From Planctomycetota bacterium (GTDB taxonomy: Bacteria > Planctomycetota > PLA2 > JAEUHO01): a stretch of 64,000 nucleotides of DNA. Location: the NCBI GenBank assembly GCA_965223505.1, contig CBDCWP010000040.1, positions 1 through 64,000 of the forward strand, written 5' to 3'. The notes beneath the pieces are model-generated. The model saw nothing but the letters and a program-made list of their open reading frames with translations. It did no database searches and was not told the origin of the DNA. How positions within the stretch are numbered: the stretch's first letter is position 1; every line of letters begins with the position of its first letter. A program made the position numbers and the translations under genes. Of this stretch, positions 34,926-51,112 are shown one piece after another.

Positions 34926-35650
34926 ATCCAGGGCGTGAGCAGCAAGCGGATTGCGAGCAACGTCAGCACGACCTTGTACATCCAGAAGAACGCGCGTTCG
35001 CTGACTCTGTGCAGAAGCGCGCGCCCCGTGACGGTTCCGAACACCACGGCGACCGCCATCGGAATGACGACGTCGAGGTGATCGATCACCGAGAAGCCGA
35101 CGGTCGAGAACCAGACGATCTTGAGCGTGTGCATGTAGGCCTGGCACACGGCCTTCGTCGCGACGACCTGCTCCTTCTTGAATCCGCCCCGCAGGAAGAA
35201 CGGCGCGATCAGCGGGCCCGTCGCGCCGACCACGACGCCCAGTAGCCCGGCGATGACGCCCGAGATCCCGAACGCCGCATTCTCGGGCAGGTGCTGGATC
35301 CCCCACTTCGGCGTCCACGTCGCGTACAGCACCGCCGCGCCGAACATCACCTTCAACGTCACCGGATCGAGCGCATCGACGATCATGAGGCCGAAGTACG
35401 GCAGCGGCAGCGCGGGCACGGCGTGCCAGAGGAACGGCCGCCAACGAACGTACTTGAAGAGCAGCACGAGCCGCGTCGAGTTCGACATCAGCTGCACGAA
35501 CGCGTGCAGCGGAATCGCCAGCGCCGGCTCCAAGCCGGCCATGTACATCGCCGCGAGCAGCATGATGCCGCCGCCCATGCCCAGGAGGCCGGAGATCGTC
35601 GACGTCACGTACGAGACGGCAACGAGGACGATCATGGTCACGGTGGGCAT
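34922..35650 (-). CDS. Sulfite exporter TauE/SafE family membrane protein
   Basis: ISGLLGMGGGIML and second-half GLLGVVVGATGP repeats, about eight TM segments. Confidence 0.85.
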   Translation of the reverse strand: MPTVTMIVLVAVSYVTSTISGLLGMGGGIMLLAAMYMAGLEPALAIPLHAFVQLMSNSTRLVLLFKYVRWRPFLWHAVPALPLPYFGLMIVDALDPVTLKVMFGAAVLYATWTPKWGIQHLPENAAFGISGVIAGLLGVVVGATGPLIAPFFLRGGFKKEQVVATKAVCQAYMHTLKIVWFSTVGFSVIDHLDVVIPMAVAVVFGTVTGRALLHRVSERAFFWMYKVVLTLLAIRLLLTPWI

Positions 35651-35695
35651 GGCGCCGCCGATCCTCAGCGGCGAAACCGCGCTTCCCAAGCGAAT

Positions 35696-36541
35696 CTACG
35701 CCGAGGAGGGACCGAGCGCCTCGATGACGTAGCCCGTCGGGTAGCTTCGGTGCGTCATGCCGTCGGTGCGCAGGCGCGGCCGTCGACGAGGCGGCAGGCC
35801 GCGCACGACGAGCGCTCGAGCCCGAAGCAGCGTGGGGACGGCCCGCCGCATGAACGGCGACGGCTTGGGGAATCCGAACGCGTCGACGACGCGATCGTCG
35901 AGCAGTGCGTAGATCCCCGCACGCACGATCGGCTTGAGCACGTTCGGGAACCAGCTCACGAAGAGCGCGACGGTCGCGGCGCCGACGCGCGCATTCGTTG
36001 CGTGAGGCCGAAAGTGGTCGCGCTCGTACTCGCGATTGAAGCGCTCGAACGTCGCGTAGTCGTCCGGGATGTCGTCGATCTTCATGCGACGCCCGACCGC
36101 GCGCCAGAAGTGAAACTGCGCCAGCCGCTCCTGCATGCACATCGGCCGCCAGCCGAAGCGGGCATTCCAGCGAATCGGTTCGAAGACGAAGGTCGAGAGC
36201 ACGTAGAGAAAGTCGTCGTTTCGGATCTCGTGGCGGCCGTGCAACCGGTTCATGCGCCGAAGCGCGCGCCGACCGCGGTCGCTGTCGTAGCCCCACTCCA
36301 TCAGCTCGCTGACGATGATGTCGGTGTCGTCGTAGCGGCGCTGGGGACGTTCGCGGAACTCACCGGTTCGGTCGAGCAGCGTCGAGATGCTCGGAACGCA
36401 GTACGAACGGAAGAGCGCGAATTCGAGCGAGCGCGTGGTGTCGAACGGGAAGTCGTAGCACGTCGAGAGGTGGACGATGCGTTGGTGATCCCGCACCGGA
36501 TCGAGCGTACGTATCTCGTCGCGAACGGCGAACTTCGCCAC
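35696..36541 (-). CDS. MpaB/DUF2236-family oxygenase-like protein
   Basis: ALFRSYCVPSIS.LL..TGEF...PQRRYDDT, RMNRLHG...IRNDDFLYVLSTF, FWRAVGRRMKIDDIP. Confidence 0.85.
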   Translation of the reverse strand: MAKFAVRDEIRTLDPVRDHQRIVHLSTCYDFPFDTTRSLEFALFRSYCVPSISTLLDRTGEFRERPQRRYDDTDIIVSELMEWGYDSDRGRRALRRMNRLHGRHEIRNDDFLYVLSTFVFEPIRWNARFGWRPMCMQERLAQFHFWRAVGRRMKIDDIPDDYATFERFNREYERDHFRPHATNARVGAATVALFVSWFPNVLKPIVRAGIYALLDDRVVDAFGFPKPSPFMRRAVPTLLRARALVVRGLPPRRRPRLRTDGMTHRSYPTGYVIEALGPSSA

Positions 36542-36743: not shown

Positions 36744-37631
36744 CTAGCGCCAGGTTTGCACCTCGAGCTCGAGCTCGACGCCGAACTTGTCGAGCACGGT
36801 GCGGCGGATCAGGCGGATGAGGTCCTGCACGTCGTCGGCCGTCGCGCCGTCCACGTTCTCGATGAAGTTGGCGTGGATCGGCGACACGCGCGCACCGCCG
36901 ATCGCGCGGCCCTTGAGACCGGCGTGCTCGATCAAGTACCCCGCCGATCGCTTCTCGTCGTCTTGCGGGTTCTTGAAGATGCAGCCGGCGCTCTTCGCCG
37001 ACAAGGGTTGGGTGTCCCGCTTCCAGCGCATCGCCGTGTCGAACAGCGTGCGTTGCGAGCGCTCCGTCAGTGAGGGGTCGCGGCGGAACGCGGCACCCGT
37101 TACGAGGCACCCCTCGAACGGACTACTGCGGTAGCCGAAGTCACACCGGCGCGGCTGCATCCGTCGGACCTCGCCGGCCGGATCCAAGTACGTCACCTCG
37201 ACCAGCGCGTCCGACACGGCCCCGAAGCGCCCCCCCGCGTTCATGAACACGACGCCGCCGACGCTTCCCGGTATCCCGGGACAGCCCGGCAGCGCGGGGA
37301 TGCCGAGCGTGATCGCCTGGCGAACGAGCGAAGGGAAGCTGTTGCCCGCGCCGACCTCGACGCGGTCCTCGTGAACGCGAAAGTGGCAGAGCCGACGCGT
37401 CGCCAGGACGGCGCCCTGAATGCGCCCTTCGCCGATCAGCAGGTTGTAGCCGCCGCCCAGGTAGCGCAGCGGCACGCCGTGCTCGCGGCACACGCGCACG
37501 ATCCGCACCGCCTCGTCCTCGGTCTGCGGCTCGAACAGGAAGTCCGGCTTGCCGCCGACCGCCAGCGACGTGCGCGACGCCAGGCGCTCGACCCGGCGTC
37601 TGGCCTCACTGAAGTCGCGCGGCAAGACCAT
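36744..37631 (-). CDS. murB: UDP-N-acetylenolpyruvoylglucosamine reductase
   Basis: TSLAVGG, LGGGYNLL, GIPGSVGGVVFMNAG, FGYRSS, QP..AKSAGCIFKNP, HANFIEN, LELEV. Confidence 0.95.
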   Translation of the reverse strand: MVLPRDFSEARRRVERLASRTSLAVGGKPDFLFEPQTEDEAVRIVRVCREHGVPLRYLGGGYNLLIGEGRIQGAVLATRRLCHFRVHEDRVEVGAGNSFPSLVRQAITLGIPALPGCPGIPGSVGGVVFMNAGGRFGAVSDALVEVTYLDPAGEVRRMQPRRCDFGYRSSPFEGCLVTGAAFRRDPSLTERSQRTLFDTAMRWKRDTQPLSAKSAGCIFKNPQDDEKRSAGYLIEHAGLKGRAIGGARVSPIHANFIENVDGATADDVQDLIRLIRRTVLDKFGVELELEVQTWR

Positions 37632-39009
37632 GCGCCACCTCGTCCACGTTGCCCGCCCCCATCGTGACCACGACGTCGCCGGCGCGCAGGTTCGCCGCGC
37701 CGTGCTCGACGAGGTCGTCGAGCTGCTCGACCGTCAGCGCCTGCCCGCCTTCGTTGCGGATGTGCAGCGCGAGGTCTTCGGACGTGACCTTGCGCCGCTC
37801 CTCTTCGCTGTCGCGCGCGAAGTAGATCGGCGGCATCCAGACCTGATCCGCCTCGGCCAACGTCGCGGCGAACTCCTTCATCAGGCAGCGGGTTCGACTG
37901 GCCTGGTGCGGTTGGAAGATCACGACGAGGCGACGGTCGGCGTACCGGCGGCGCAGGGCACGCACGACGGCGCGGATCTCGGTCGGATGGTGACCGTAGT
38001 CGTCGTAGATGAGCACCTCCCCGCGCTCGGCGACACGCTCCAACCGGCGGCCCACGCCCTGGAAGGCGACGAGGCCCTCGCGGACGGCGTCGAACGACAG
38101 GCCGCTGTTGCAGAGCGCCGCGGCGGCGCCGGTCGCGTTGAGCACGTTGTGCCGGCCGAGCATCGGAATCTCGAGCTCGCCGAGCAGCGTTCCGGCGCGG
38201 CGAAGCTCGAAGCGCATGCCCGCGCCGTCGTCGAGCAGCGCCGGATCCGAGCAGTGCCAGCGCGCATCGTCGCCGAACCCGTAGGTCTCGATCGACGCCT
38301 TCAAGCGCGCGTCGCCTTCGAAGACCGGCGCATACGCGTCGTTGACGACGAGCGTTCCCTCCGCGGGCAAGCGCGCCGCGAACACGCGGAACGACTCCTG
38401 GATCTCCGCCAGGTCCCGGTAGTAGTCCAGGTGGTCTTCGTCGACATTGGTCACGACCGCGACGAACGGGTTGTGGGCGTGAAACGAGCGGTCGAACTCG
38501 CACGACTCCACGACGAAGTGACGCCCGGCGCCGACGCGCGCGCCCGATTCGAACTCCCGCAGCTCCCCCCCCACGACGAAGCTCGGATCCTCGCCCGCGT
38601 GCATCAGGCACGACGCCAGCATGGACGACGTGGTGGTCTTGCCGTGGCAGCCGGCGACGCAGATCGCGAGCGTCTCCGACATGAGCGCGCCGAGAAGCTC
38701 CGCGTACTTCCACGTCTGGACGCCGCGCGCCCGAGCGGCTTCGAGCTGCGGGTGGATCTCGGGCACCGCGGCCGAGAACACCAGCAGGTCGAGGTCGTCG
38801 GGCAGGGCCGACGCGTCCTCGCGGTCGTCGACGGCGATGCCCAGCGAGGCGAGCTGCGCGCAGCGCTCGCCCGGCGCGCGGTCGCTGCCCCGCACGTTCA
38901 GGCCGCGCGCCTTCAGCAGGCGCGCCGCGCCGCTCATGCCGACGCCCTCGGCGCCGATCAGGAACGCGGAGTGGTGTCCGTTCAGGGCTTGGGGGTTGGG
39001 CTGGATCAC
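37606..39009 (-). CDS. murC: UDP-N-acetylmuramate--L-alanine ligase
   Basis: IGAEGVGMSG, VAGCHGKTTTSSM, ESCEFDRSF, TNVDEDHLDYY, GVGRRLE, DDYGHHPTEI, FQPHQ, MGAG. GTG start overlaps the murG stop. Confidence 0.95.
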   Translation of the reverse strand: MIQPNPQALNGHHSAFLIGAEGVGMSGAARLLKARGLNVRGSDRAPGERCAQLASLGIAVDDREDASALPDDLDLLVFSAAVPEIHPQLEAARARGVQTWKYAELLGALMSETLAICVAGCHGKTTTSSMLASCLMHAGEDPSFVVGGELREFESGARVGAGRHFVVESCEFDRSFHAHNPFVAVVTNVDEDHLDYYRDLAEIQESFRVFAARLPAEGTLVVNDAYAPVFEGDARLKASIETYGFGDDARWHCSDPALLDDGAGMRFELRRAGTLLGELEIPMLGRHNVLNATGAAAALCNSGLSFDAVREGLVAFQGVGRRLERVAERGEVLIYDDYGHHPTEIRAVVRALRRRYADRRLVVIFQPHQASRTRCLMKEFAATLAEADQVWMPPIYFARDSEEERRKVTSEDLALHIRNEGGQALTVEQLDDLVEHGAANLRAGDVVVTMGAGNVDEVAHGLAARLQ

Positions 39010-40148
39010 CGCGGTCGCACCGGCTCCTCTCGTTCCAACAATCGGATGAGATCGTCGGCGGTTTGACCCGCTGCGTCGGCTTCCAGGTTCTCGTAGCTTC
39101 GACGCATGTCGGCGAGCGCGGCGTCGTCTTCGAGCAAGGAGGTGACGTCCTTCACGATGCGCTCCGGCGAGAGGTCCTGCTCCTCGATCAGGTGCGCGCC
39201 GCCCGCCCGAACGAGCGCTTCGGCGTTGCGCCACTGCTGCCGGTCGGCGTGATGGGGATAGGGCACCAGCACCGCGGGCGTTCGCGTGGCGGCCAGCTCG
39301 GCGCAGGTGTTGGCACCGGCCCGCGCCAGCACCAGATCCGCGGTCTTGTACGCGCTGCCCATGTCCTGCACATAGGGCGTTACGTGGTGCACGAGCCGCA
39401 GGCGTTCGTACGTGGCGTCGATGTCGGCGCGTTGGCCGCCGACGGAGTGCAGGATCTGGATGCGCTCACGGATGCCGGGGTCGTCGACGAGCGCCGCGCG
39501 GATCCCGATGAGCCAGCGGTCGTACAAGCCCTGGGCGCCGAGGCTGCCGCCGAGGATGAGCAGCGTACGGCGGGACGGATCGAGGCCGAAGGCCGCAGGA
39601 TCGCGCCGGCCGCCGAGCACCTGGGTACGCAGCAGCGGGCCGGTCACCCGCACGCTCTCGCTGTGGAGGTGGCTGCGGGCTTCGTCGCAGGGCGCGTAGA
39701 TGCGGTCGGCCCAGCCTTGCATGTGGCGCACGACGACGCCGGGCACGGCGTCGGCGACGATGAACACGAGCGGCACCTTGGCGATGCGTGCGGCGACGGC
39801 CGCGGGCAGGCAGGGCCAGCCGCCGAGCGCGACCACCGCGCCGACGCGCTCGCGCCGGATCACTGCGAGCGCGCGCATTACGCCGCGGACGGTCAGCGGA
39901 CCGAACTCGAAGACGGCGCGCGGCGTCTTCGGCAGTCGGGAGGCGGGGACCTCCCGGGGCGCGTCGCGCTCCTTGAACCACTCCCGCTCTTTGGTCTCGC
40001 CGGGTGTGGCGAACACGGATTCAATGCCGCGGGCGCGCAGGGCCTCCGCGAGGGCGAATCCGGGCGCGAGGTGCCCGGCGGTGCCCCCGCCTGCGAACAA
40101 GACGCGGCTGCGAGCGGCGACGGCAGGGGTGTCGGGGGCGCGGACCAT
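39006..40148 (-). CDS. murG: Undecaprenyl-PP-MurNAc-pentapeptide GlcNAc transferase
   Basis: AGGGTAGH, ILGGSLGA, ADLVLARAGANT.AEL, LVPYP...QQWRNA. Confidence 0.95.
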   Translation of the reverse strand: MVRAPDTPAVAARSRVLFAGGGTAGHLAPGFALAEALRARGIESVFATPGETKEREWFKERDAPREVPASRLPKTPRAVFEFGPLTVRGVMRALAVIRRERVGAVVALGGWPCLPAAVAARIAKVPLVFIVADAVPGVVVRHMQGWADRIYAPCDEARSHLHSESVRVTGPLLRTQVLGGRRDPAAFGLDPSRRTLLILGGSLGAQGLYDRWLIGIRAALVDDPGIRERIQILHSVGGQRADIDATYERLRLVHHVTPYVQDMGSAYKTADLVLARAGANTCAELAATRTPAVLVPYPHHADRQQWRNAEALVRAGGAHLIEEQDLSPERIVKDVTSLLEDDAALADMRRSYENLEADAAGQTADDLIRLLEREEPVRPR

Positions 40149-40208: not shown

Positions 40209-41906
40209 CTACCGCCCGGGGAAGCGCGGGATCGGTCCGCGGCGCACCGGCCGCGGCGTCGGGTTGAGCGGCGCCTGGCGGACGCGGATGTTCGCCGTGA
40301 TGCCGAGATCATGCGCGCGCAGACTGCGGTCGGCGTAGGCCACCAACCGGTAGCGGCCGGCGGCGACCGAGCTCGGAATGCTCGTCATGATGCGCGTCGG
40401 CGTCCAGGTGTCGATCGGCAGCGGGATCTTGCGGCCGGCCGAGTCCAGGAGCTGGAACGACTGGTCCTGACGGATGCCGAATTTGCCGTCCAGATGGAAG
40501 CGCTGGCCGATCGACACGTCGATGCTGCGTGTCGTGAACTTCGGCCGCAGTGTGCGGCGGAAGCCCCAGTCGACGTAGGCGTGCGGCTGGCGTGCGTGAA
40601 TCGGTCCGACGCGGACGCGCATACCCGTATCGCTGCCGTCCCACCATCGCAACGTAATCACTCGGTCCTCGAAGAAGTAACCGCGGCCCGTTCCATAGGC
40701 CCACTTGTTGCGCCCATCCACACCGCGGTAGACGAGCGTCCGGTCTTCCTGGCCCGCGGGACGTCCGGGTGCAGGGATCTTCAAGAGGACGTGGTCGTCA
40801 TTCGTACGCACGTGCCAGATCAGCACGCCTCGGTCGCGGCCGCCGGCCCAGTTGATGCGATCCATGGCGCCGAGTGCCTTGGTGCGGTACTCGATGAGGA
40901 AGTACTCGTTCGGGCCCTTTGTGGGGCTGTGGAGCAGGATCGGCCGGGTGTCGCGACCGCCGAGCTGTGGTGCGACGAGCTTGGCCTGGCCCTCCTGGCG
41001 GAACGTGAACACGCGCGGCTCGATCCAGCCGAGGCGCATGCGGTGCCACGGATCCAGGTAGGTCGCAAACGGACTGTCCACCGCCCCCATGGTGCCGGAC
41101 ATCAGCGTCGCCCAGCCGTTCAGGCGAAAGCCCGCTCCGTAGACATCGATCGTTCCGAGCGTGTGCGCAAGCTCGTGCGCAAGCGTCGCGAAACCGACGC
41201 CTTCACCGGCGCTCATGATCTTGCCACCGTAGCGCAGGCGGGTGCCCGGCAGATCGAAGTTGCGATCACGCGCCGCGCCGCAGTTCTCACATGTGTATTG
41301 CAGACGCGGATTGGCCGGACGGCCACCGACCATTCGAGGTTCTGCGCCGATGTAGAGAATCGTCAGCTCGTCCGACGTGACGGTTCCGTCGCGGTTGCGG
41401 TCGTAAGGAGCGAAGTTGAAGAGCCGCCGGCGGGACACCTCTTGGATCATGCCGTCGAGGTGCATCTCCCACGTCCAGCTCGCGTCCTGCTGGGGACACA
41501 TCCGACGCCCATTCACCCTCGGGTTGATCGCGCAAAGGTGGAAACGTTCGTCTGCCGCGTTGCTGCCCATCGGAACGCTGCGGACGGGCCCGACGATGCC
41601 GGCCTTCACGAAGGTGAACTTGCCGCCGCTCGCGTTGGTGAAGTACGCGTTGAGACTCGGGTTGGACGACGATCGGCGATTGCCGAAGAGCAGCTGGTCG
41701 TAGTAGGCGGCGTTGTGTGGCGCGTGGAAGCGCACGTCCTGGAAGTCGCCGAGGACGACGAGCAAGGGCCGGCGGCCGACGGCGGCCTTGCCGTTCCACT
41801 TCATGGTGCCGTAGCCGAACTTGTCGGCCGGGGAGGCCGCGTCGCTCGGCCCGGCCTGGAACAGGAGGGCAAAGAGCACGACGGCGAGGAGTGCGAGGGG
41901 TTTCAT
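40209..41906 (-). CDS. Secreted M6-family (immune inhibitor A-like) metalloprotease
   Basis: Signal peptide MKPLALLAVVLFALLFQAG, SLNAYFTNASGGKF, TLAHELAHTLGTIDVY, TLMSG (Met-turn), LDPWHRMRLGWI, EYFLIEYR, GVLIWHV. Confidence 0.85.
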   Translation of the reverse strand: MKPLALLAVVLFALLFQAGPSDAASPADKFGYGTMKWNGKAAVGRRPLLVVLGDFQDVRFHAPHNAAYYDQLLFGNRRSSSNPSLNAYFTNASGGKFTFVKAGIVGPVRSVPMGSNAADERFHLCAINPRVNGRRMCPQQDASWTWEMHLDGMIQEVSRRRLFNFAPYDRNRDGTVTSDELTILYIGAEPRMVGGRPANPRLQYTCENCGAARDRNFDLPGTRLRYGGKIMSAGEGVGFATLAHELAHTLGTIDVYGAGFRLNGWATLMSGTMGAVDSPFATYLDPWHRMRLGWIEPRVFTFRQEGQAKLVAPQLGGRDTRPILLHSPTKGPNEYFLIEYRTKALGAMDRINWAGGRDRGVLIWHVRTNDDHVLLKIPAPGRPAGQEDRTLVYRGVDGRNKWAYGTGRGYFFEDRVITLRWWDGSDTGMRVRVGPIHARQPHAYVDWGFRRTLRPKFTTRSIDVSIGQRFHLDGKFGIRQDQSFQLLDSAGRKIPLPIDTWTPTRIMTSIPSSVAAGRYRLVAYADRSLRAHDLGITANIRVRQAPLNPTPRPVRRGPIPRFPGR

Positions 41907-42116
41907 GGGGAGGTCTCCGGGTCGGGGGCCCGGCGCCCCTAGAGGATGGGGGCTCCCGAACGGGGGCGGCTGTAGACAGGGAGGCCTGGTTACTCGCCCA
42001 CGATGAGCTTCGCCGTCTCCCCTGCCCGCACCCCGTGGAGTACGTCGACCGTCGGCGAGGACGACTTCGAACTGGTACGTCCCCGGTGCAACGCCCCAGA
42101 CTCGGAACGTTTGGTC

Positions 42117-42284
42117 CGGGGCGCATTCACTCGGGCGCTTTGCAAGGCGATTCGAGAGTCGAACGGCAGGTTGACCTACACCGAAGCGATTCGGCGAGCG
42201 AGTCGAAGTCTGCGATCGTTCTCTCGGAGGCCCCAACTCGAGTGTCCGCCCGCATTGGAGTCTCAGCAGCTGTTCACGCCGCTG
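42117..42284 (+). pseudogene. Possible remnant of a caspase-family (metacaspase) C-terminal region
   Basis: RGAFTRALCKAIRESNGRLTYTEAIRRASRSLRSFSRRPQLECPPALESQQLF resembles the 'GaFT.aL...l......tY.el..........Q.PQl' tail. No His/Cys catalytic region upstream. Confidence 0.45.
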
Positions 42285-42302: not shown

Positions 42303-43481
42303 CTACTCCCAGGGATCGGTGGTCGTCGCGGCCGCCGTCTTGCGCGCGACGTTCACGATCAGCCCGACGCAGACCGACGCCATCAGCAGGTTGCTGCCGC
42401 CGACGCTGATGAACGGCAACGACACCCCCTTCGTCGGCACCGTCGCCGTCACCACCGCGATGTTCACCAACGCCTGGAACGTCACGATGAAGGTCGCGCC
42501 CGCCGCCAGGTAGAACGCGTGCGCGTTCAGCGACCGCGCATGCCACGCCACCCGACGGCCGTACCAGACCAGCAGCATGTACGCGATCACCACGCCGGCA
42601 CAGCCCAGGAACCCCAACTCCTCGCCGATGACGGCGAAGATGAAGTCCGTCTGCGACTCGGCCACGTAGTGGAGCTTCTGCGTGCCCTCGCCCAGCCCCG
42701 TGCCGAACCACTGGCCCGACCCGATCGCGACGAGCGACTCGCCGGTCTGGCTGCCGGCCTTCGGACCTTCCGCGAACGCGTCGATGCGCTTGCTCACGTG
42801 GCCGAAGCGGCGATACGCGTACACCACGATCAACGGCGTCACCATCAACGCGAACGGAACGAAGCGCGTCGGACGAACGCCCGCGAGGCCGAGCAGCACC
42901 ACCGCCTCGGCCACGATGAACAACGACGTCCCGAGATCCGGCGCCACGAGCACCAGCACCGCGCCGACGCCGACGGGTGCGAGGATCGCCAACAACGGCG
43001 TGCGCGTGCCGAATGCGTTCGCGCGCTCGCGGCTCGAGAGCTGGTCCGCCAGGAACAGCAGCGCGCCGATCTTCAGGAACTCGCTGGGTTGGATCGAGAA
43101 CGGCCCCACGAACAGCCAGCGCCGGCTCTGGTTGCGCAGCGGACCGAGGATGAGGGTCAGCAGCAGCAGCGCGATCGAGCCGTAGAGCACCGGCTTCGCC
43201 GCGCGGCGCAACCACGAGAGCGGCACGCATGAGACCGCCCAGCCCACGATCGCCGCGAGCACGACCCAGCGCACCTGGCGCACGAGGTTGCGGCTTGGAT
43301 CCACGATCGTCTTGCCGATGTCGGCGTCCACGTTGAACCCCGCCTGCTTCGCGGCGGTCGACGAGTAGACCATCACCAAACCGAGCGCGACCAGGCCGAC
43401 GGCGACGCCGAACACCATGCGGCCGGCGTGCAGGATCTGATGTCCCGTTCCGCGCGACAGGGGGAGGGGCTCGCCCGTCAT
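42303..43481 (-). CDS. ftsW: SEDS peptidoglycan glycosyltransferase FtsW
   Basis: GLVMVYSS, RRWL..GPFSIQPSEFLK, PDLGT, AIGSG..FGTGLG, TDFIFAVIGEELG, PTKGVSLPFISVGGS. Confidence 0.93.
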   Translation of the reverse strand: MTGEPLPLSRGTGHQILHAGRMVFGVAVGLVALGLVMVYSSTAAKQAGFNVDADIGKTIVDPSRNLVRQVRWVVLAAIVGWAVSCVPLSWLRRAAKPVLYGSIALLLLTLILGPLRNQSRRWLFVGPFSIQPSEFLKIGALLFLADQLSSRERANAFGTRTPLLAILAPVGVGAVLVLVAPDLGTSLFIVAEAVVLLGLAGVRPTRFVPFALMVTPLIVVYAYRRFGHVSKRIDAFAEGPKAGSQTGESLVAIGSGQWFGTGLGEGTQKLHYVAESQTDFIFAVIGEELGFLGCAGVVIAYMLLVWYGRRVAWHARSLNAHAFYLAAGATFIVTFQALVNIAVVTATVPTKGVSLPFISVGGSNLLMASVCVGLIVNVARKTAAATTTDPWE

Positions 43482-43485
43482 CCGA

Positions 43486-44931
43486 TCACCTCATCTTCAG
43501 CGACGCGAGCGCGACCAGGACGCAGATCACGCTGACGATCCAGAACCGCACGGTCACCTTGTTCTCGTGCAGCCCGAGCTGTTCGTAGTGATGGTGGAAC
43601 GGGGCGCACTTGAACCAGCGCTTGCCCGTCGGGTTGGCCTCGCCCCGCTTCGCCGCCGCGCGGCGGGTCGCCTTGAAGTACGTGCGCTGCCAGATCACCG
43701 ACAGCGCCTCGGCGACGAACAACCCGCCCGCGATCAGCAGCGTGAACTCGTGGCGCAGGGCCACCGCCATCACGCCCAGGATGCCCCCGATCGAGAGCGA
43801 TCCGGTGTCCCCCATGAAGACCTGCGCCGGATAGCTGTTGAACCACAGGAATCCCAGCGACCCGCCGACCAGCGCCGACGCGATGATGGCCAGCTCGCCT
43901 GCATCCTCCACGTAGAACAGGTACAGCGTCCGCGAGAAGTCCACGCGCCCGACCAGATACGCAACGGCCGCGAACGCGACCGCCACCGTCGCCGTCGTGC
44001 CGATCGCCAAGCCGTCCAGCCCGTCCGTCAGGTTGACGGCGTTGCTCGCGCCGACGATCACCAGGATCCCCAGTGGGATGAAGAGCAACCCGAGGTCGAA
44101 GCAGAACTTCTTGAAGAAGGGAATCTGCAGGTCGGCGCGGTGATGGTCGTTCGGATCCGGCCACGCGGCAGGGAGGCGCACCTCACGCCCCAGGTGCGGC
44201 GTGAACATCCGATACCGCGACTCTTCGGGCGCGGCGTGATCGGCGGCGTGCGCCGGCTCGCGCAGCGCCTCGGGCGTGGCGTCGGCGGGGGCGATGCCGT
44301 TGAGCAGCGCGATCTCGCGTGCGCGCTCCTCGTTGCCGAGGTACTTGCCGGCAATCGATCGCCACGACTCGCCGGGCTTGACCGGGTGGCGCTTGACCCA
44401 CTTGAGCTTGTAGGGGTTCTCCTTGAGGCTCGGGCCGCGCAGCCAGGGCGTGTCGTCCTTCGCGTTGCCGAGCGCGTAGAGCACCGTGATGGCCGTCATC
44501 GCGATCCCCAGCTGCGTGAAGAGCTTCTGCTTCTCACTGATGCCCTGTGCGCCCGGGTGCGCGAGCTTGCGCCAGTCGTCCCACGCACCGAGCGCGCCGA
44601 ACGCGAGGAAGGAGAGCAGGACGATCCAGGTGAGCGGGGTGTCCAACCGCGCGAAGAGGAACCCGGACAGGGCGACGCCGATGAGCAGGATGACGCCGCC
44701 CATCGTCGGTACGTCGGACTTCGCACTGCGCTTGGCGTCCACGTCGTCGCTGCCGGTCTTGCTGTAGCCGGCGATCTTGCGCTTGCGCAGGCTCTCGACG
44801 ATGCCGGGGCCCACCACCGTCGCGACGAGGAACGCGAGAATCGCGGCGAACGTCGCGCGGAAGGTGATGTACTGGATGAGCCGGAAGCCGGATACGAAGT
44901 CCTCGAGCGGGGCGAAGAGGTGGTAGAGCAT
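43486..44931 (-). CDS. mraY: Phospho-N-acetylmuramoyl-pentapeptide transferase with internal LysM-like insertion
   Basis: Start MLYHL at 44931. YITFR, PTMGG, WDDWRK, SNAVNLTDGLDGLA, GFLWFNSYPAQVFMGDTGSL, APFHHHYE. 481 aa because of the insertion at 44131-44469. Confidence 0.93.
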   Translation of the reverse strand: MLYHLFAPLEDFVSGFRLIQYITFRATFAAILAFLVATVVGPGIVESLRKRKIAGYSKTGSDDVDAKRSAKSDVPTMGGVILLIGVALSGFLFARLDTPLTWIVLLSFLAFGALGAWDDWRKLAHPGAQGISEKQKLFTQLGIAMTAITVLYALGNAKDDTPWLRGPSLKENPYKLKWVKRHPVKPGESWRSIAGKYLGNEERAREIALLNGIAPADATPEALREPAHAADHAAPEESRYRMFTPHLGREVRLPAAWPDPNDHHRADLQIPFFKKFCFDLGLLFIPLGILVIVGASNAVNLTDGLDGLAIGTTATVAVAFAAVAYLVGRVDFSRTLYLFYVEDAGELAIIASALVGGSLGFLWFNSYPAQVFMGDTGSLSIGGILGVMAVALRHEFTLLIAGGLFVAEALSVIWQRTYFKATRRAAAKRGEANPTGKRWFKCAPFHHHYEQLGLHENKVTVRFWIVSVICVLVALASLKMR

Positions 44932-45028: not shown

Positions 45029-46444
45029 CTACGTCCGAGGGCCCCCGAGGTAGGCGCCGCCCGCTGGGTCGGCCGCCCGCGCCATTTCACGGACGTGCTC
45101 GAGCAGCTGCTCGAGCGCCATGCCGCGCGAGGCCTTGAACATCCAGGCGTCGCCGGGCCGTGGGTCGAAGCCCGGGTCCCGGATCGCGTCCTCGAGGGTC
45201 TCGTGCCAGTGCACGCGATCCGCCGACATGCCGCGCCCCACGGCCTCCTCGACGACGATCCGCGCGCTCGGCCCGACGGCCCAGAGCACGTCGATGCCCT
45301 CGTGGGCGACCTTGCGGCCGAGCGAACGGTGGCAGCGCTCCGACTCCTCGCCGAGCTCGAGCATCTCGCCCAGCACGGCCACGCGCCGGCCCCCGCAGTC
45401 GCGCAGACGCAGCTCGCGAATCGCCTCGTCCATGCTGCGCGGGTTGGCGTTGTAGGCGTCGTTGATGAGCACGACGTCGCCGACCTGCTCGCGGCTCATG
45501 CGCATGGGCGGCGCGGCGTAGCGCGCGAGCGCCGCGCGGACCGCCATCGGATCCTGATCGAGCCACAGGGCGACGGCGACGGCGGCGAGCGCGTTGGCGA
45601 CGTTGTGCAGCCCGTACGCGGGGATCTCGAACGGCATGCGTCCGTACAGGTAGAAGCCGACGCCCTCGGGCGTGGCCTGCGCGTCGATGCCGTAGACGTC
45701 CGCGTCCTCCCACGTCCCGAACGTCACGACGTGCGACTCGACCTGCTCCATGATCTCGCGGCAGTAGTAGTTGTCGGCGTTGATGATCGCCGCACCGTCT
45801 TCGGGCAGTCCCTTCAGCAGGGCCGCCTTCTCCTTCATCACGCCGCGCACGGTGCCGAGGCCTTCGAGGTGCGCCTCCTCGACGTTTGTCAGCACGCCGA
45901 CCGTCGGCCGCGCGATGCCGGTGAGATACTCGATCTCGCCCGGCGCGTTCGTGCCGATCTCCACGACGCACGCGCGCGTCGTGCCGTCCATCTGCAGCAG
46001 CGTGAGCGGGACGCCGATGGCGTTGTTGTACGACGCCGGGCTCGCGACGACGTCCTCGCCGAGGATCAGCCGCACCATCTCCTTCACCGTGGTCTTGCCG
46101 CAGGATCCGGTGATGCCGATCACCGGCACGTCGAAGCGCGTCCGGTGCCAGCGCGCCAGGTCGCCGAGCGCCTTCGTCGTGTCATCGACGACGATCGTAT
46201 TGGCCGACCGGCGTCCGAACTCCGCGTCCTTCGCGACCAGACTGAATCCCGCGCCGTTGAGGAACGCCTCGTTGATGAACCGGTGCGCGTCGAAGCGCTT
46301 GCCGACGATCGGCACGAAGAGCGCCCCCGCAGGCACGTCGCGGCTGTCCGTCGTGACGGCGGTGATGACGGGATCACCGTCCACCGGGCCTGCGGGCTCT
46401 CCGCCCGTCGCGCGCAGGACTTCGCTGTATCGAATCGGTTCCAT
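45029..46444 (-). CDS. murF: UDP-N-acetylmuramoyl-tripeptide--D-alanyl-D-alanine ligase
   Basis: TDSR, GITGSCGKTTVKEM, SYNNAIGVPLTLL, EIGTN..GEI, AHLEG, INDAYNANP.SM, VLGEMLELG, KASRGM.LE. Confidence 0.95.
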   Translation of the reverse strand: MEPIRYSEVLRATGGEPAGPVDGDPVITAVTTDSRDVPAGALFVPIVGKRFDAHRFINEAFLNGAGFSLVAKDAEFGRRSANTIVVDDTTKALGDLARWHRTRFDVPVIGITGSCGKTTVKEMVRLILGEDVVASPASYNNAIGVPLTLLQMDGTTRACVVEIGTNAPGEIEYLTGIARPTVGVLTNVEEAHLEGLGTVRGVMKEKAALLKGLPEDGAAIINADNYYCREIMEQVESHVVTFGTWEDADVYGIDAQATPEGVGFYLYGRMPFEIPAYGLHNVANALAAVAVALWLDQDPMAVRAALARYAAPPMRMSREQVGDVVLINDAYNANPRSMDEAIRELRLRDCGGRRVAVLGEMLELGEESERCHRSLGRKVAHEGIDVLWAVGPSARIVVEEAVGRGMSADRVHWHETLEDAIRDPGFDPRPGDAWMFKASRGMALEQLLEHVREMARAADPAGGAYLGGPRT

Positions 46445-46456
46445 GCTTCTACCTCA

Positions 46457-47983
46457 CTATGCCTGAGGGGCACCCCAGGAAGGGTCGCGCGCCGCGCGCT
46501 CGTCGAGCGCCGCCCGCACCTCTTTCACGTCGTCGAAAGGGACCTTCTCCGTCCCCAAAACCTGATACGTCTCGTGGCCCTTGCCGGCCACCAGCACGGT
46601 CGCGCCGGCCGGCGCTTCGAGCACCGCCCGGCGAATCGCCTCGCGCCGGTCCACGACGCGAAGCACACGTTCCTTCAGCCCGGACGGTGCGTCGTCGGCG
46701 CACAGCTCGGACGTCATCTGATCGAGAATCTGCTCCGGGTCCTCGGAGCGCGGGTTGTCGCTCGTGAAGTACGCGAGCGTGCACGCTTCGGCGGCGACGC
46801 GGCCCATGCGCGGACGCTTGAACGCGTCTCGGTCGCCGCCGCATCCGACCACGCAGATCAACGGATCGGCGCCGACGTCGGTCAGGAACGAGAGCACCTG
46901 GCGCAGCGCGTCCTCCGTGTGCGCGTAGTCGACGAACACGTACAGGTCGTCGCTCGCCACGCGCTCGAGCCTTCCGGGCACCCCCTCCAAGCTGCACGCG
47001 CCTTCGACGGCGTGAATCGGATCGATGCCGAGCGCCATGCAGCCGCCGACGGCGGCGAGCAGGTTCATCACGTTGTGCCTGCCGGTGAGCGGCGTCCGCA
47101 CGTCGACCTGACCGTCACCGGCGACGACGAGCCGGAACGACGTGCCGTCGAGGCCGAGCTGCACGTCGTCGGCTTGCAGGTCGGACTCGGTGCTCGTTCC
47201 GTAGGTGAGCACGGACCCGCGGCAGCGTGCAGCGAGGCGCGTCCAAGCGCCGTCTTCGCGGTTGAGCACCGCGACGCCCGAGGGAGGCAGCTCGGAGAAC
47301 AGCTTCGACTTCGCTTCGAAGTAGGCCTCCGGGGAGCCGTGGTAGTCGAGATGGTCGCTCGCCAGGTTCGTGAAGATCGCGACGCGGAACTCGAGTCCCT
47401 CCGTCCGCGCTTGATCGAGCGCGTGGCTCGACACCTCCATGACGGCCGCAGTGCAGCCGGCGTCGCGCGCGCGCGCGAGCAACCAGCGCAGCTCGAGCGC
47501 TCCGGGTGTCGTGTTGCCCGCGGGCACGGGGTCGCCGTCGCCGAGGTCGTGCGCGATCGTCCCTAGCAGCGCGGTCGCATGGCCGCAGGCGCGCAGCGCG
47601 GCCGCGGTCATGTGGGCCGACGTCGTCTTGCCCTTGGTGCCGGTGATCGCGATCAGGTCGAGCGCGTCCTGCGGTCGGCCGTACCAGGCGTCGGCTGCTG
47701 ACCGCAGCGCCCCGTCGACGTCGTCGACGAGCAACGTCGGGAGGCCGGGCAGCTCGCTGTCGCAGACGACGACCACGGCGCCGCGCTCGACGGCGTCGAT
47801 GGCGTACTGCGCGCCGTCCTCCAGGGTGCCGCGGCGCGCGAAGAACGCCTCCCCGGTCTGCACGTCGCGGGAGTCGTCGGCCAGTCCGCGCACCTGCGCG
47901 CCGGCTTGGACGTTCGCCAACACGCCCTGCACGATCTCGCGCAGCGCGCCGACGTTCCGGGGACGGTCCGCGACCACGTTCAC
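46457..47983 (-). CDS. murE: UDP-N-acetylmuramoyl-L-Ala-D-Glu--2,6-diaminopimelate ligase
   Basis: DDSR, ITGTKGKTT, MEVSSHALDQ, FTNL..DHLDYH, VPGRLE, DYAHT, GCGGDRD..KRP.MG, TSDNPR (meso-DAP type), AGKGHE. GTG start overlaps the ftsI stop. Confidence 0.95.
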   Translation of the reverse strand: MNVVADRPRNVGALREIVQGVLANVQAGAQVRGLADDSRDVQTGEAFFARRGTLEDGAQYAIDAVERGAVVVVCDSELPGLPTLLVDDVDGALRSAADAWYGRPQDALDLIAITGTKGKTTSAHMTAAALRACGHATALLGTIAHDLGDGDPVPAGNTTPGALELRWLLARARDAGCTAAVMEVSSHALDQARTEGLEFRVAIFTNLASDHLDYHGSPEAYFEAKSKLFSELPPSGVAVLNREDGAWTRLAARCRGSVLTYGTSTESDLQADDVQLGLDGTSFRLVVAGDGQVDVRTPLTGRHNVMNLLAAVGGCMALGIDPIHAVEGACSLEGVPGRLERVASDDLYVFVDYAHTEDALRQVLSFLTDVGADPLICVVGCGGDRDAFKRPRMGRVAAEACTLAYFTSDNPRSEDPEQILDQMTSELCADDAPSGLKERVLRVVDRREAIRRAVLEAPAGATVLVAGKGHETYQVLGTEKVPFDDVKEVRAALDERAARDPSWGAPQA

Positions 47984-49845
47984 CGCTCCTCCTTCAGTGG
48001 CTCTTCCGTGCTGAGGAACGCCGGGGACGCGAGCGTGGCCGTCGGCGCGATGCCGGCGTCGGACGGCGCCACGTTCCAGTACGCGAGCGTGCGCTCGATC
48101 ACCTCGCGCACGGACGCGGCCGCGACCTGGGCGCCGTACTTGCGGCGCTCGCGCTCCACCTTGCCCATGACGAGCACCACGACGCACGGGTCCTCGAACG
48201 GCGCGAACGCGGCGAGCGAGCAGATGTTGAAGTCGGCTCTCCCTTCGCGCTGTACGGCCGTGCCGGTCTTCGCCGCCGCCGCGTACCGCGCGCCGCGGAA
48301 CTGGTGGCGCGCCGTGCCCGCGAGCACGCACTGCCGCATGCCTTCGCGCACGACGGCGAGGTGCCTCGGATCGCACAGCCGCGGTCCCGTGCACGGACGG
48401 GGCTTTCGACGCAGGATCAACGTCGGCCGCACGACACGCGCGTCGTCGCGCGCGATCGCGGCGATGGAGCAGATGAGTTGCATCGGCGTGATCGCGAACG
48501 CGTTCCCGTACGCGGCGCGATGGGCCCACCACCACGGCCACTTGCCGTCCACGTCCGGCGCGAGTCGTCCCCCGCGCTCGTTCGGGAGGTCGATGCCGGT
48601 CGGATTCGTCAGGCCCAGGTGCAGCCAGAGGTCGCGCATGCCCTCGCGGCCGAGCCGGTGGGCGAGCTTCGCCGCGCCGGTGTTGCTGCTCTCCGCGATC
48701 AGCCGTACGACGGTGCCGCGGCCGATGAAGTGATCGTCGTGGATGTCGTGTGCCTCGCCTTCGAGCCGCGCGACAAGCGGCATGAAGATCTCCTCGTCCG
48801 CCTTGACGACACCGTGTTCCAGCGCCCACGCGACGGTGATCGGCTTGAAGACGCTGCCCACCTCGTAGCGCTCCTGGATCGCGAAGTTGAGCTTGGCCGG
48901 CTCGCGGTTGGGGTCGAACGTCGGACGGTTCGCCAACGCGAGCACCTCGCCGGTGCGCGGATCGAGCACGATGCCGCACAACTGCACGGGCGCCGTGTCG
49001 CCCACGACGCGGTCGAGCGCGGCTTCCATGAAGTGCTGGATGACGAGATCGATCGTCAGGCGCACGTCGCCGCCGCGCGTGCTCGACCGGTCCATGTCGC
49101 CGTTCGCGGCCATCAAGCGCCGGCGCCCGTCGCGAAACACCGGAATCGTCGCGCGCTTGCCGGAGAGGAAGCCGTTGTAGCGGCCCTCGATGCCGACACG
49201 ACCGGCGGAGACGTCGTACGGAACCTCGCCCACGACGTGCGCGGCGTAGGTCTCGTTGGGGTACGAGCGGATCTCCTCGCGCTCGACGCGGATCCCGAAC
49301 AGCCCGCGGCGGTGAAGCTGCGTGTCGGACAGCATGCTCACCACGTCGAGCCGGTCGATGAGCAGCGGGTCCTCGATGTGCTTTCGCAGGACCTTGTAGC
49401 GGCGAACGGGCTTGCCGTTCTTCGCGGCGACCGCTCGCTCGTGCTCGATGCGTTCGCGAATCTGCCACGGCGCAGGGTCGCCGCCGAGCACGGCGGACGC
49501 CTGGAGCGCGAAGACGCGTACGTCCTTGATGACGCTCGGATGCGGGTCGACCCACACCAACCGCGCGGGCCGGCTGTTGGCGAGCGGCCAGCCACCGCGG
49601 TCCAGAATGCTTCCGCGCCGTGCCTGGAACTCGAAATTCGACGTGTGCCGGCGGTCGGCCTGCTGCCGGTAGCCGTCGCCTTCGACGATCTGCAGCTTGG
49701 CAAGGCGGCCGAGCAGCAACGCGAAGAGCACCAGGAGCGTGCCGAACACGAAGTTCGTTCGGAACCGCCGGACGGCCTCCAGCGTGCGGCGCAGCTGCCA
49801 CGGCGGAACCGTGCGCGGGACGTGGGTGACGGCGCGGCGCTTCAT
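47980..49845 (-). CDS. ftsI: Class B penicillin-binding protein (FtsI-like transpeptidase)
   Basis: Single TM, RGSILDR, RSYP, LTID..IQ, SxxK (GSVFK), SxN (SSN), KTG (AKTGTA). Canonical dcw position. Confidence 0.9.
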   Translation of the reverse strand: MKRRAVTHVPRTVPPWQLRRTLEAVRRFRTNFVFGTLLVLFALLLGRLAKLQIVEGDGYRQQADRRHTSNFEFQARRGSILDRGGWPLANSRPARLVWVDPHPSVIKDVRVFALQASAVLGGDPAPWQIRERIEHERAVAAKNGKPVRRYKVLRKHIEDPLLIDRLDVVSMLSDTQLHRRGLFGIRVEREEIRSYPNETYAAHVVGEVPYDVSAGRVGIEGRYNGFLSGKRATIPVFRDGRRRLMAANGDMDRSSTRGGDVRLTIDLVIQHFMEAALDRVVGDTAPVQLCGIVLDPRTGEVLALANRPTFDPNREPAKLNFAIQERYEVGSVFKPITVAWALEHGVVKADEEIFMPLVARLEGEAHDIHDDHFIGRGTVVRLIAESSNTGAAKLAHRLGREGMRDLWLHLGLTNPTGIDLPNERGGRLAPDVDGKWPWWWAHRAAYGNAFAITPMQLICSIAAIARDDARVVRPTLILRRKPRPCTGPRLCDPRHLAVVREGMRQCVLAGTARHQFRGARYAAAAKTGTAVQREGRADFNICSLAAFAPFEDPCVVVLVMGKVERERRKYGAQVAAASVREVIERTLAYWNVAPSDAGIAPTATLASPAFLSTEEPLKEER

Positions 49846-50192
49846 CGATCGCCTCCCTCGTCACCGAGCACGCGGAACACGTGGCGGCCCTGGGGCGCGA
49901 AGTCGCGCGGCGCCTTGTCGTGCGGATCGATCGTCGGCATGAAGTTCGGGAACGGATCCGATGGATCGCAGACGTCGCACTCGCGATCCCACTCCTCGAG
50001 CAGGTAACGCGGCGTGAGCGTCGCCGCGATGTCGGCGTCGATCTCGCGCAGCTGGCGCTCCAACGAGTCGCGCCGACGTTCCACCTCCAGCACGCGATAC
50101 CGCAGACGGCAGACCTCGCTGTGCTCGCATACGGCAACGAGCGCGACCGCTACGACGGCCAGCAACACCGCGATGGTCGTTACGACGTTCAC
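49842..50192 (-). CDS. ftsL: FtsL-like bitopic coiled-coil protein
   Basis: TM followed by a heptad coiled coil (LRYRVLEVERRRDSLERQLREIDADIAATLTPRYL). Lies between rsmH and ftsI with 4-bp overlaps on both sides. Confidence 0.6.
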   Translation of the reverse strand: MNVVTTIAVLLAVVAVALVAVCEHSEVCRLRYRVLEVERRRDSLERQLREIDADIAATLTPRYLLEEWDRECDVCDPSDPFPNFMPTIDPHDKAPRDFAPQGRHVFRVLGDEGGDR

Positions 50193-51112
50193 CGTTTTCC
50201 TTCGTCCTCATCCTTCGCGCGCTCGAACGCGCGCAGTCGCGCGGGGCGGGCCCGCGGATTGCGTTTCACCTCCGCTTCCGTCGGCCGGATTGGTTTCTTG
50301 GTCAGGATGGTCCCGAGGCGGTCGCGCTTCGCTTCGCGAAACGCCGCCTTGACCTCGCGCTCCTCACCGCTGTGGAAGCAGATGACGACGAGGCGCCCCC
50401 CCGGCGCCAACGCGCGCACCGCCGCGCGCAGCCCGCGCCGCAGGTGCGCGATCTCCTCGTTCACCGCCATGCGCAACCCCTGCAGGCTGCGCGTGGCCGC
50501 GTCGATGCGCCGAACACGCAGCGCCGCGGAGCGAATGACGTCGGCGAGCTGCCCCGCCGAGCGGATGGGACGCGCCCGCACGATCGCGCGCGCGACGGCG
50601 CGCGCACGCGGCTCCTCGCCGAGCTCGTGCAAGATGTCGGCGAGCTCACGCTCCGACGCGTGGTTCACCAGATCGCTTGCCGAGCGCGACGCGTCCGTTG
50701 GATCGAAGCGCATGTCGGGCACCGCGTCCTCGAATCGAAACGAGAACCCGCGGCTCTCGTCGTCGAGCTGCATCGACGACAACCCGAGATCGAGCAGCAC
50801 CCCCACTGCGCTGTCGATCCCCATCGACTCGAGCACGGACGCAAGGTCCGCGTACGACTGATGGGCGAGCGTCGCGCGCGCTCCGAACGGCTCGAGCGTT
50901 CGCTTCGCGATGTCGAGCGCTTGCGGGTCGCGGTCGAGCCCGAGCAGCGTCACGCCCGGCGCGGCCTCGAGGATCGCGGTCGCATGACCGCCCGCCCCGA
51001 CCGTGCCGTCGACCACGAGGCCCCCGGCGGTCGCCGCGTTCCCGGCGAAGAGATGCAGGAGCACCTCCTCGACCAATACCGGCTGATGGAACTGGAAAAG
51101 ATCGTCCGTCAC
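50189..51112 (-). CDS. rsmH: 16S rRNA m4C1402 methyltransferase RsmH (MraW)
   Basis: HQPVL, DGTVGAGGH, GLDRD, DLGLSSMQLD...RGFSF, DMR, QGLRMAVNEE, FHSGE, NPRAR.ARLR. Confidence 0.96.
   Translation of the reverse strand: MTDDLFQFHQPVLVEEVLLHLFAGNAATAGGLVVDGTVGAGGHATAILEAAPGVTLLGLDRDPQALDIAKRTLEPFGARATLAHQSYADLASVLESMGIDSAVGVLLDLGLSSMQLDDESRGFSFRFEDAVPDMRFDPTDASRSASDLVNHASERELADILHELGEEPRARAVARAIVRARPIRSAGQLADVIRSAALRVRRIDAATRSLQGLRMAVNEEIAHLRRGLRAAVRALAPGGRLVVICFHSGEEREVKAAFREAKRDRLGTILTKKPIRPTEAEVKRNPRARPARLRAFERAKDEDEGKR

Follow-up and report, generated by a model that had tools for sequence, protein, structure and literature searches.

The mraY gene in a 64,000-nucleotide stretch of DNA from a member of the Planctomycetota (GenBank assembly GCA_965223505.1, contig CBDCWP010000040.1, positions 1 to 64,000; the whole stretch is referred to below as the window) encodes an MraY that very likely carries a LysM-fold insert on its periplasmic face. 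About 105 residues are added in the connection between transmembrane helices 4 and 5 (TM4 and TM5), the catalytic signatures of the enzyme are intact, and the addition is found throughout one bacterial family. The reading we favor, and hold to be reasonably probable, is that a working MraY contains a single divergent LysM domain in this periplasmic connection, that the domain was inserted once and has been kept by purifying selection, and that its groove binds glycans. A known enzyme and a known domain type are here joined in a combination and at a position that we have not found described.

Position and Membrane Side of the Insert

The gene and the parts of its insert are listed below, with residue numbers referring to the encoded protein.

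43486..44931, minus strand: mraY, 481 amino acids plus stop, start MLYHLF at 44931
44389..44469, minus strand: N-terminal flank of the insert (residues 155-181, motif PWLRGPSxKxxPY), conserved order-wide, including the LysM-less sister family
44170..44388, minus strand: predicted divergent LysM-fold core (residues 182-254), from AlphaFold, the insert profile search and the structure search; Pfam LysM E 0.044
44221..44286, minus strand: 22-residue Ala/Pro/Glu-rich extension (residues 216-237) in the α2-β2 loop, a gap block in the family alignment
44131..44169, minus strand: C-terminal flank (residues 255-267, WPDPxDHHRAD, His-rich), leading into the hairpin and conserved order-wide
44092..44130, minus strand: periplasmic β-hairpin of MraY (LQIPFFKKFCFDL, residues 268-280), with TM5 next; model strands 267-270 and 273-279, aligning from 4j72 residue 164

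The encoded protein scores 333.2 bits against TIGR00445 (mraY), above the cut-off of 192.05, and 110.4 bits against PF00953 (Glycos_transf_4; cut-off 27, E 1.2e-31), and it can be aligned end to end with Aquifex aeolicus MraY (4j72) at E 6e-84. The catalytic motifs of MraY are an Asp pair, NxTDGxDG, FMGDxGS and HHH. All four are present in the window protein (DDWRK at residues 118-122, NLTDGLDG at 300-307, FMGDTGS at 372-378 and HHH at 446-448), and with the TIGR00445 score they bear out the claim of the preliminary description, a note made from the sequence of this stretch, that the catalytic motifs are intact and the frame continuous. From the intact motifs and the setting of the gene in a cluster of genes for the cell wall and division (dcw), we infer that the window MraY is a working lipid I synthase with transferase activity. 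The frame is open upstream to 45090, and MLYHLF at 44931 was taken as the start because relatives and the Aquifex enzyme begin at the MLY motif.

A 113-codon in-frame segment had been described between the motifs ITVLYAL (residues 148-154) and LQIPFFK (residues 268-274), and this proves exact: 44131-44469 (-) translates without a stop to 113 amino acids (GNAKDD...HPVKPGESWRSIAGKYLGNEERAREIALLNGI...HLGREVRLP...DHHRAD) within one open frame. In the alignment with 4j72 the query blocks stop at residue 151 and resume at 268 while the Aquifex chain moves only from 153 to 164, which leaves about 105 additional residues in the window protein between TM4 and the hairpin. Canonical MraY enzymes (A. aeolicus 4J72, E. 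coli 8G01/8TLU) share the catalytic motifs, helix count, hairpin and murF-ftsW dcw context of the window protein, but the solved enzymes have only about 10 residues between TM4 and the hairpin. A further difference is a 12-residue addition in cytoplasmic loop E (43630-43665 (-), residues 423-434), which is seen shortly before HHH in comparison with the Aquifex-type sequences 4j72 and 9zno.

According to published work, MraY crosses the membrane with ten helices, begins and ends in the periplasm, and has five loops on the cytoplasmic side and a β-hairpin on the periplasmic side (PMC4790310, in the part of the text available). An AlphaFold model built from a full-length alignment of 40 sequences (pLDDT 87.7) has helices and a hairpin that fit the 4j72 alignment, predicting the same ten-helix topology. 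Between DDWRK and NLTDGLDG, both cytoplasmic, the model has exactly two helices (133-159 and 281-302), and its hairpin (267-279) follows directly after the insert. The peak 19-residue hydropathy of the insert is 0.35, which gives it no hydrophobic segment, and the helix count is therefore unaltered. By homology to solved MraY and with no hydrophobic segment added, the insert is expected on the periplasmic face, opposite the catalytic site; the periplasmic loop proposed earlier thus agrees with the published topology of the TM4-TM5 connection (PMC4790310).

Both flanks of the LysM-fold core have conserved positions of their own. R165, P173 and Y174 of the N-terminal flank are invariant or nearly so, and H264 and D267 of the C-terminal flank are nearly invariant in one of the alignments.

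An origin of the insert in a frameshift or in an assembly chimera, the latter named by the preliminary description as grounds for abandoning its claim, is excluded, its probability being negligible. Twenty-seven further genome assemblies carry this insert in frame, insert and flanks have equal G+C content, and contigs of three public sequencing runs from two samples (X1, X2 and X3) span the insert without indels and with 0-1 differences; of these runs, X1 and X2 may be the assembly's own source. A fourth run (X4), a small share, gave short pieces only, with 90-95% likeness, on conserved parts of MraY.

LysM Identity of the Insert

Residues 182-254, the core of the insert, belong to the LysM superfamily as a divergent member, one that annotation by thresholds will miss. 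The sequence evidence comes mainly from the reverse direction of search. A profile built from the 23 inserts of the family matched 3628 proteins at E≤0.001 in 1.84 billion representatives, with E-values down to 1e-31, and the top matches contain 3-6 matches per protein over profile positions of about 27-81. A Pfam scan of 27 of the 150 listed matches (most of the top 22 plus a few lower ones) found PF01476 (LysM) above its cut-off in 24, MraY in 2 and no family in 1 protein of 99 amino acids. Several of the multi-LysM proteins are fused to muramidase, M23, VanY or C39-like domains. Against the sequences of the PDB, the first match of the insert profile is 9gtp_P, a 'LysM domain-containing protein' from a Streptomyces injection-system baseplate (E 0.0034), aligned over the whole β-α-α-β unit to the final G-x-E-L-x-L-P strand, and the second is the LysM pair of a Thermus thermophilus NlpC/P60 protein.

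In the forward direction, 13 of the 23 inserts match PF01476 at E≤1. Among the copies with a short α2-β2 loop, four span positions 1-43 of the 43-position profile and a fifth spans 1-42. Phage_tail_X (PF05489) is matched by five of the 23 copies. The family alignment preserves the LysM hallmark positions G-[DE]-[ST]-x, [IL]-A, N and G-x-x-[ILV]-x-[LIV]-P. In helix 1 the I/L-A motif has an invariant Ala, helix 2 has an invariant Ala and closes with an invariant Asn, and H182, L198, G199, R203, G247 and P254 are nearly invariant. Precomputed Pfam annotation of ten close homologs lists PF00953 alone. Because every copy falls just below the Pfam cut-off, the MraY LysM is invisible to domain-architecture databases.

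The fold prediction points the same way. Both AlphaFold models place β1 at about residues 180-183, helices at 190-198 and 201-210, and β2 at 250-253; the model of the insert alone, made from 23 sequences (pLDDT 77.4), gives the same β-α-α-β arrangement as the full-length model. An exhaustive structure search with the insert returned 39 chains at Z≥2, of which only the last six rows are unrelated folds. The top matches are Kbp (Z 6.4) and 9gtp_P (Z 6.3, 36% identity over 56 residues), followed by the T. thermophilus NlpC/P60 LysM domains (Z 6.0 and 5.7) and Ecp6 (5.1), and the list also holds SleL, plant LysM receptors, the AtlA and MltD LysM domains and P2 gpX. The LysM domains range from Z 6.4 to 3.3, values at which, according to the search tool's own warning for Z below 8, a match can reflect a common arrangement only, and the fold result is therefore weighed only jointly with the profile result. 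Taken together, the reverse profile search, the predicted fold and the structure search uphold the earlier description of the segment as LysM-like, while the Pfam model itself does not, 0 of 23 copies reaching its cut-off of 20.9 bits.

Comparison with known modules shows how far the insert departs from the usual setting of the domain. The LysM modules of wall hydrolases (PF01476; E. faecalis AtlA 2MKX, T. thermophilus NlpC/P60 4UZ2/4UZ3, E. coli MltD 1E0G) share its fold, its hallmark positions and its extracytoplasmic place. They form terminal tandem arrays on soluble hydrolases, however, whereas the MraY LysM is a single copy inside a polytopic synthase and falls below the Pfam cut-off. The window copy differs further in an α2-β2 loop that is 22 residues longer and in a β1 strand that opens with His, where the Pfam LysM consensus has Tyr. 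The best structural and PDB-sequence matches are Kbp/YgaU (7PVC) and baseplate modules (9GTP chain P, Phage_tail_X PF05489, P2 gpX 2LTF), which share with the MraY LysM a 'Y-x-G-D/N ... R/W-x-x-I-A-x-x-N-G' flavor; these modules reside in soluble or virion proteins and the MraY LysM in a loop of a membrane enzyme.

Distribution, Origin and Selection

MraY was sought in 40 relatives and matched in 41 of 41 genomes, the source genome included. The MraY genes were cut from 33 loci and aligned, leaving out locus L027 (genome G040), which has no open frame with NxTDGxDG. The aligned proteins fall into three kinds.

Own family: 23 rows, 2 of them fragments, MraY of 451-481 amino acids, with both flanks and a core of the form H-x-V-x-x-G-E/D-S/T-W ... 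Y-L-G-D ... R-A-x-E-I-A-x-x-N-G ... G-R-x-I-R-L-P
Sister family of the same order: 6 rows, MraY of 406-429 amino acids, flanks kept (LRGPSxKPSPY ... DHRTDLQ) around an unrelated short filler
Other families of the phylum: 4 rows, MraY of 360-399 amino acids, nothing in the TM4-TM5 loop

Used alone as a query, the insert is matched, in frame, in 27 of the 28 other genomes of its family, the single miss being a genome (G012) in which mraY is split over two contig ends, and in 0 of the 11 sister-family genomes. Across 401 genomes sampled evenly over the phylum, the insert is present in 16 of 16 family members, and no MraY bears it among the 384 genomes outside the family, where four weak matches occur. 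Two of these four are membrane-anchored multi-LysM proteins, not MraY, and the other two are short open frames (186 and 104 amino acids) interrupted by a stop codon. Beyond the phylum sample, an MraY-alignment search of genome contigs gave, among the matches listed, only ordinary MraY genes of about 360 amino acids from other phyla, and the ESM Atlas, queried with homolog P0013, gave, among the matches listed out of 30, ordinary MraY clusters with scores of at most 0.83, no more than lead level, none listing LysM, a result that is silent on other MraY-LysM forms.

A maximum-likelihood tree of the MraY core, made from 31 rows with the insert columns removed and the fragments L015 and L016 dropped, unites all 21 rows that have a LysM in a single clade (support 100/99, stem 0.62) beside the rows of the sister family. 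Because all LysM-bearing rows form one clade, a single gain is the simplest history. The flanks PWLRGPSxKPxPY and WPDPxDHHRAD are kept in both families of the order (loci L021, L022 and L030-L033), and therefore either the loop was already lengthened earlier or the sister family lost the core. Probably a single insertion took place, in the family's ancestor, and its site was a loop that had already been lengthened in the order; alternatively, a gain may have preceded the split of the two families and been followed by loss in the sister family.

In the two membrane-anchored proteins found outside the family (L115:828-2393 (-) and L116:793-2508 (-)), 4-6 LysM repeats in tandem accompany one N-terminal helix. 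An individual repeat shares 48-49% identity with the MraY LysM over the first 40-45 residues of the latter, but no enzyme domain is seen beside the repeats, while the MraY LysM is single and inside an enzyme. Repeat proteins of this type are a plausible source of the inserted domain. Recognizable LysM domains are scarce in the source genome of the window: the insert profile matched only mraY there (E≤0.01), and only one place in that genome, G000:C14:46532-46672 (+) (locus L120), reaches the Pfam LysM cut-off, with 36.3 bits.

The LysM domain is constrained by purifying selection yet evolves faster than the enzyme that holds it. In the five closest pairs, the ratio of nonsynonymous to synonymous substitution rates (dN/dS) is 0.11-0.18 for the LysM part and 0.06-0.15 for the MraY core. 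The nine copies with a long α2-β2 loop form two groups on the tree, within an unresolved fork, and a single origin of the loop extension is possible.

Possible Function of a Periplasmic LysM Domain in MraY

LysM modules recognize GlcNAc-X-GlcNAc in a shallow groove of the β1-α1 and α2-β2 loops, mostly through backbone contacts (PMC4083421, available text). We hypothesize that the corresponding groove of the insert would bind a GlcNAc-X-GlcNAc glycan as other LysM modules do. With one LysM per protomer, an MraY dimer would make two weak contacts with peptidoglycan strands or with the head-groups of flipped precursors, and these could hold MraY at sites of wall growth (tethering) or could let the enzyme register the state of the precursor pool in the periplasm (sensing). 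Variants that make MraY hyperactive fall on the dimer interface's extracytoplasmic side, and feedback inhibition of MraY there by externalized lipid II has been proposed for Pseudomonas and E. coli (PMC10914600, available text). Because this feedback is proposed at the extracytoplasmic face, a periplasmic ligand-binding addition is mechanistically plausible. Whether the insert binds a peptidoglycan-type glycan or precursor is, in our estimate, evenly balanced, and the analysis suggests an MraY that may touch or sense the wall it helps to build. A bolder version, in which the LysM would be a built-in sensor that sharpens or replaces feedback inhibition by externalized lipid II, seems to us rather doubtful. 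Were it true, the first membrane step of wall synthesis would be throttled directly by the status of periplasmic precursors or of the wall, and one subgroup would have its ligand retuned by the 22-residue loop extension.

Several observations weigh against a glycan-binding LysM domain kept for this purpose. The window copy matches PF01476 with 14.2 bits (E 0.044) over profile positions 3-31 of 43, the best relative, which does cover the full profile, stops at 20.3 bits against the cut-off of 20.9 that none of the 23 family copies reaches, and 8 of the 22 relatives match neither LysM nor Phage_tail_X. A Foldseek search of the PDB yielded nothing at E≤0.001, its LysM-rich list starting at 0.22, and all Z-scores of the structure search, at most 6.4, lie in the range covered by the tool's warning. 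The nearest structural neighbors include the LysM-like modules of Kbp and of phage and injection-system baseplates, and to our knowledge glycan binding by these modules is not established. The α2-β2 loop, which makes up half of the LysM sugar groove (PMC4083421), has canonical length in 14 of the 23 copies and about 22 extra, poorly conserved residues in the other nine; the window's copy is among the nine (residues 216-237 being extra) and does not have the short loop. The extended groove loop of the window's subgroup would count against canonical binding, or else for a changed ligand. In six more distant pairs dN/dS is 0.46-0.97 for the LysM part and 0.19-0.35 for the core, ratios for which dS is probably saturated. 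Finally, a single LysM binds weakly, and more modules raise binding (PMC4083421).

The main rival holds that the insert has the LysM fold without glycan binding and serves as a protein-contact or structural module, touching the other protomer, FtsW or penicillin-binding protein (PBP) partners, or another periplasmic protein. We consider it unlikely, though the most serious of the alternatives. The best structural and sequence neighbors of the insert do include baseplate proteins and Kbp (9gtp_P, 8kea_J, 9euf_L, 7aeb_M and 7pvc), the Phage_tail_X profile is matched by five of the 23 copies, the groove-forming α2-β2 loop varies in length, and genes for FtsW, a class B PBP and MurG are immediate neighbors in the operon. 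Yet the hallmark LysM positions are kept, the profile finds its strongest matches in multi-LysM wall proteins of the ordinary kind, some of which also carry a muramidase, M23, VanY or peptidase domain, and no partner has been identified. It is more improbable still that the insert is a passenger tolerated in a permissive loop, with no part in MraY function. The TM4-TM5 loop is indeed permissive, having been lengthened without a LysM in the sister family, the loop extension is low in complexity, and distant pairs show faster evolution in the insert than in the core; but the insert is kept in every complete mraY of the family examined, dN/dS is low (0.11-0.18) in close pairs, several columns are invariant, including the A, A and N of the LysM helices, and both AlphaFold models predict the core confidently. 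Least probable of these three is a chance or convergent β-α-α-β arrangement in an insert drawn from some other, undescribed family, to which we give very little weight. The PF01476 scores below cut-off, the absence of a significant Foldseek match and Z-scores of at most 6.4 are what such a resemblance would give, but proteins that are multi-LysM by Pfam's independent call are matched at E-values down to 1e-31 in the reverse profile search, the alignment of short-loop copies extends along the entire LysM profile, and the list of structure matches is almost uniformly LysM.

The preliminary description had also tied the insert to a dcw cluster lacking ftsZ and ftsA, and this link comes out weak. 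FtsZ (TIGR00065) was not found in the source genome, which is 92% complete, and no FtsA scored above cut-off there. FtsZ loss is described as ancestral to the Planctomycetota (PMC12673574, available text), while the LysM is confined to one family; because the two ranges are so different, FtsZ loss and the LysM are not specifically coupled, and the idea that the domain compensates for missing FtsZ was rejected. The accompanying statement that no characterized MraY-LysM fusion was known has stood: no description of one was found in the literature, in the article texts available, and the word LysM does not occur in the available text of two planctomycete papers (PMC5147048 and PMC12673574).

MraY is among the most conserved and most studied enzymes that are antibiotic targets, and built-in accessory domains are rare in it. 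A glycan-binding LysM domain, as we favor, would place a domain of wall-binding type on its periplasmic face and lend natural support to the idea that this face is regulatory, and the insert offers concrete constructs for pursuing that idea, namely the domain in isolation and versions of MraY that have or lack it. The case also illustrates that a conserved domain can escape domain-architecture databases when all of its copies fall just under a Pfam cut-off. For FtsZ-less bacteria, whose wall synthesis and division are poorly understood, the MraY LysM provides a lineage marker and a lead for cell biology.

The mraY gene belongs to a dcw-type operon on the window's minus strand; the murF stop lies 97 nt upstream of it and ftsW 4 nt downstream. 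The neighbors are as follows, from upstream to downstream.

50189-51112, minus strand: rsmH
47980-49845, minus strand: class B PBP
46457 to about 48199, minus strand: murE
45029-46444, minus strand: murF
42303-43481, minus strand: ftsW
40209-42236, minus strand: open reading frame (ORF) of 675 amino acids, between ftsW and murG, in the usual place of murD
39006-40148, minus strand: murG
37606-39234, minus strand: murC
36744-37631, minus strand: murB

Directly after murB, in the canonical dcw place of ddl, ftsQ, ftsA and ftsZ, stands an ORF of 750 amino acids (34044-36296 (-)) with no match in NCBIfam or Pfam. The 675-residue ORF at 40209-42236 (-) has no Pfam match and resembles TIGR03296 (M6 metalloprotease domain; E 1.8e-24) with 87 bits against a cut-off of 110.8. 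The murD gene is on a separate contig (G000:C12:88641-89957).

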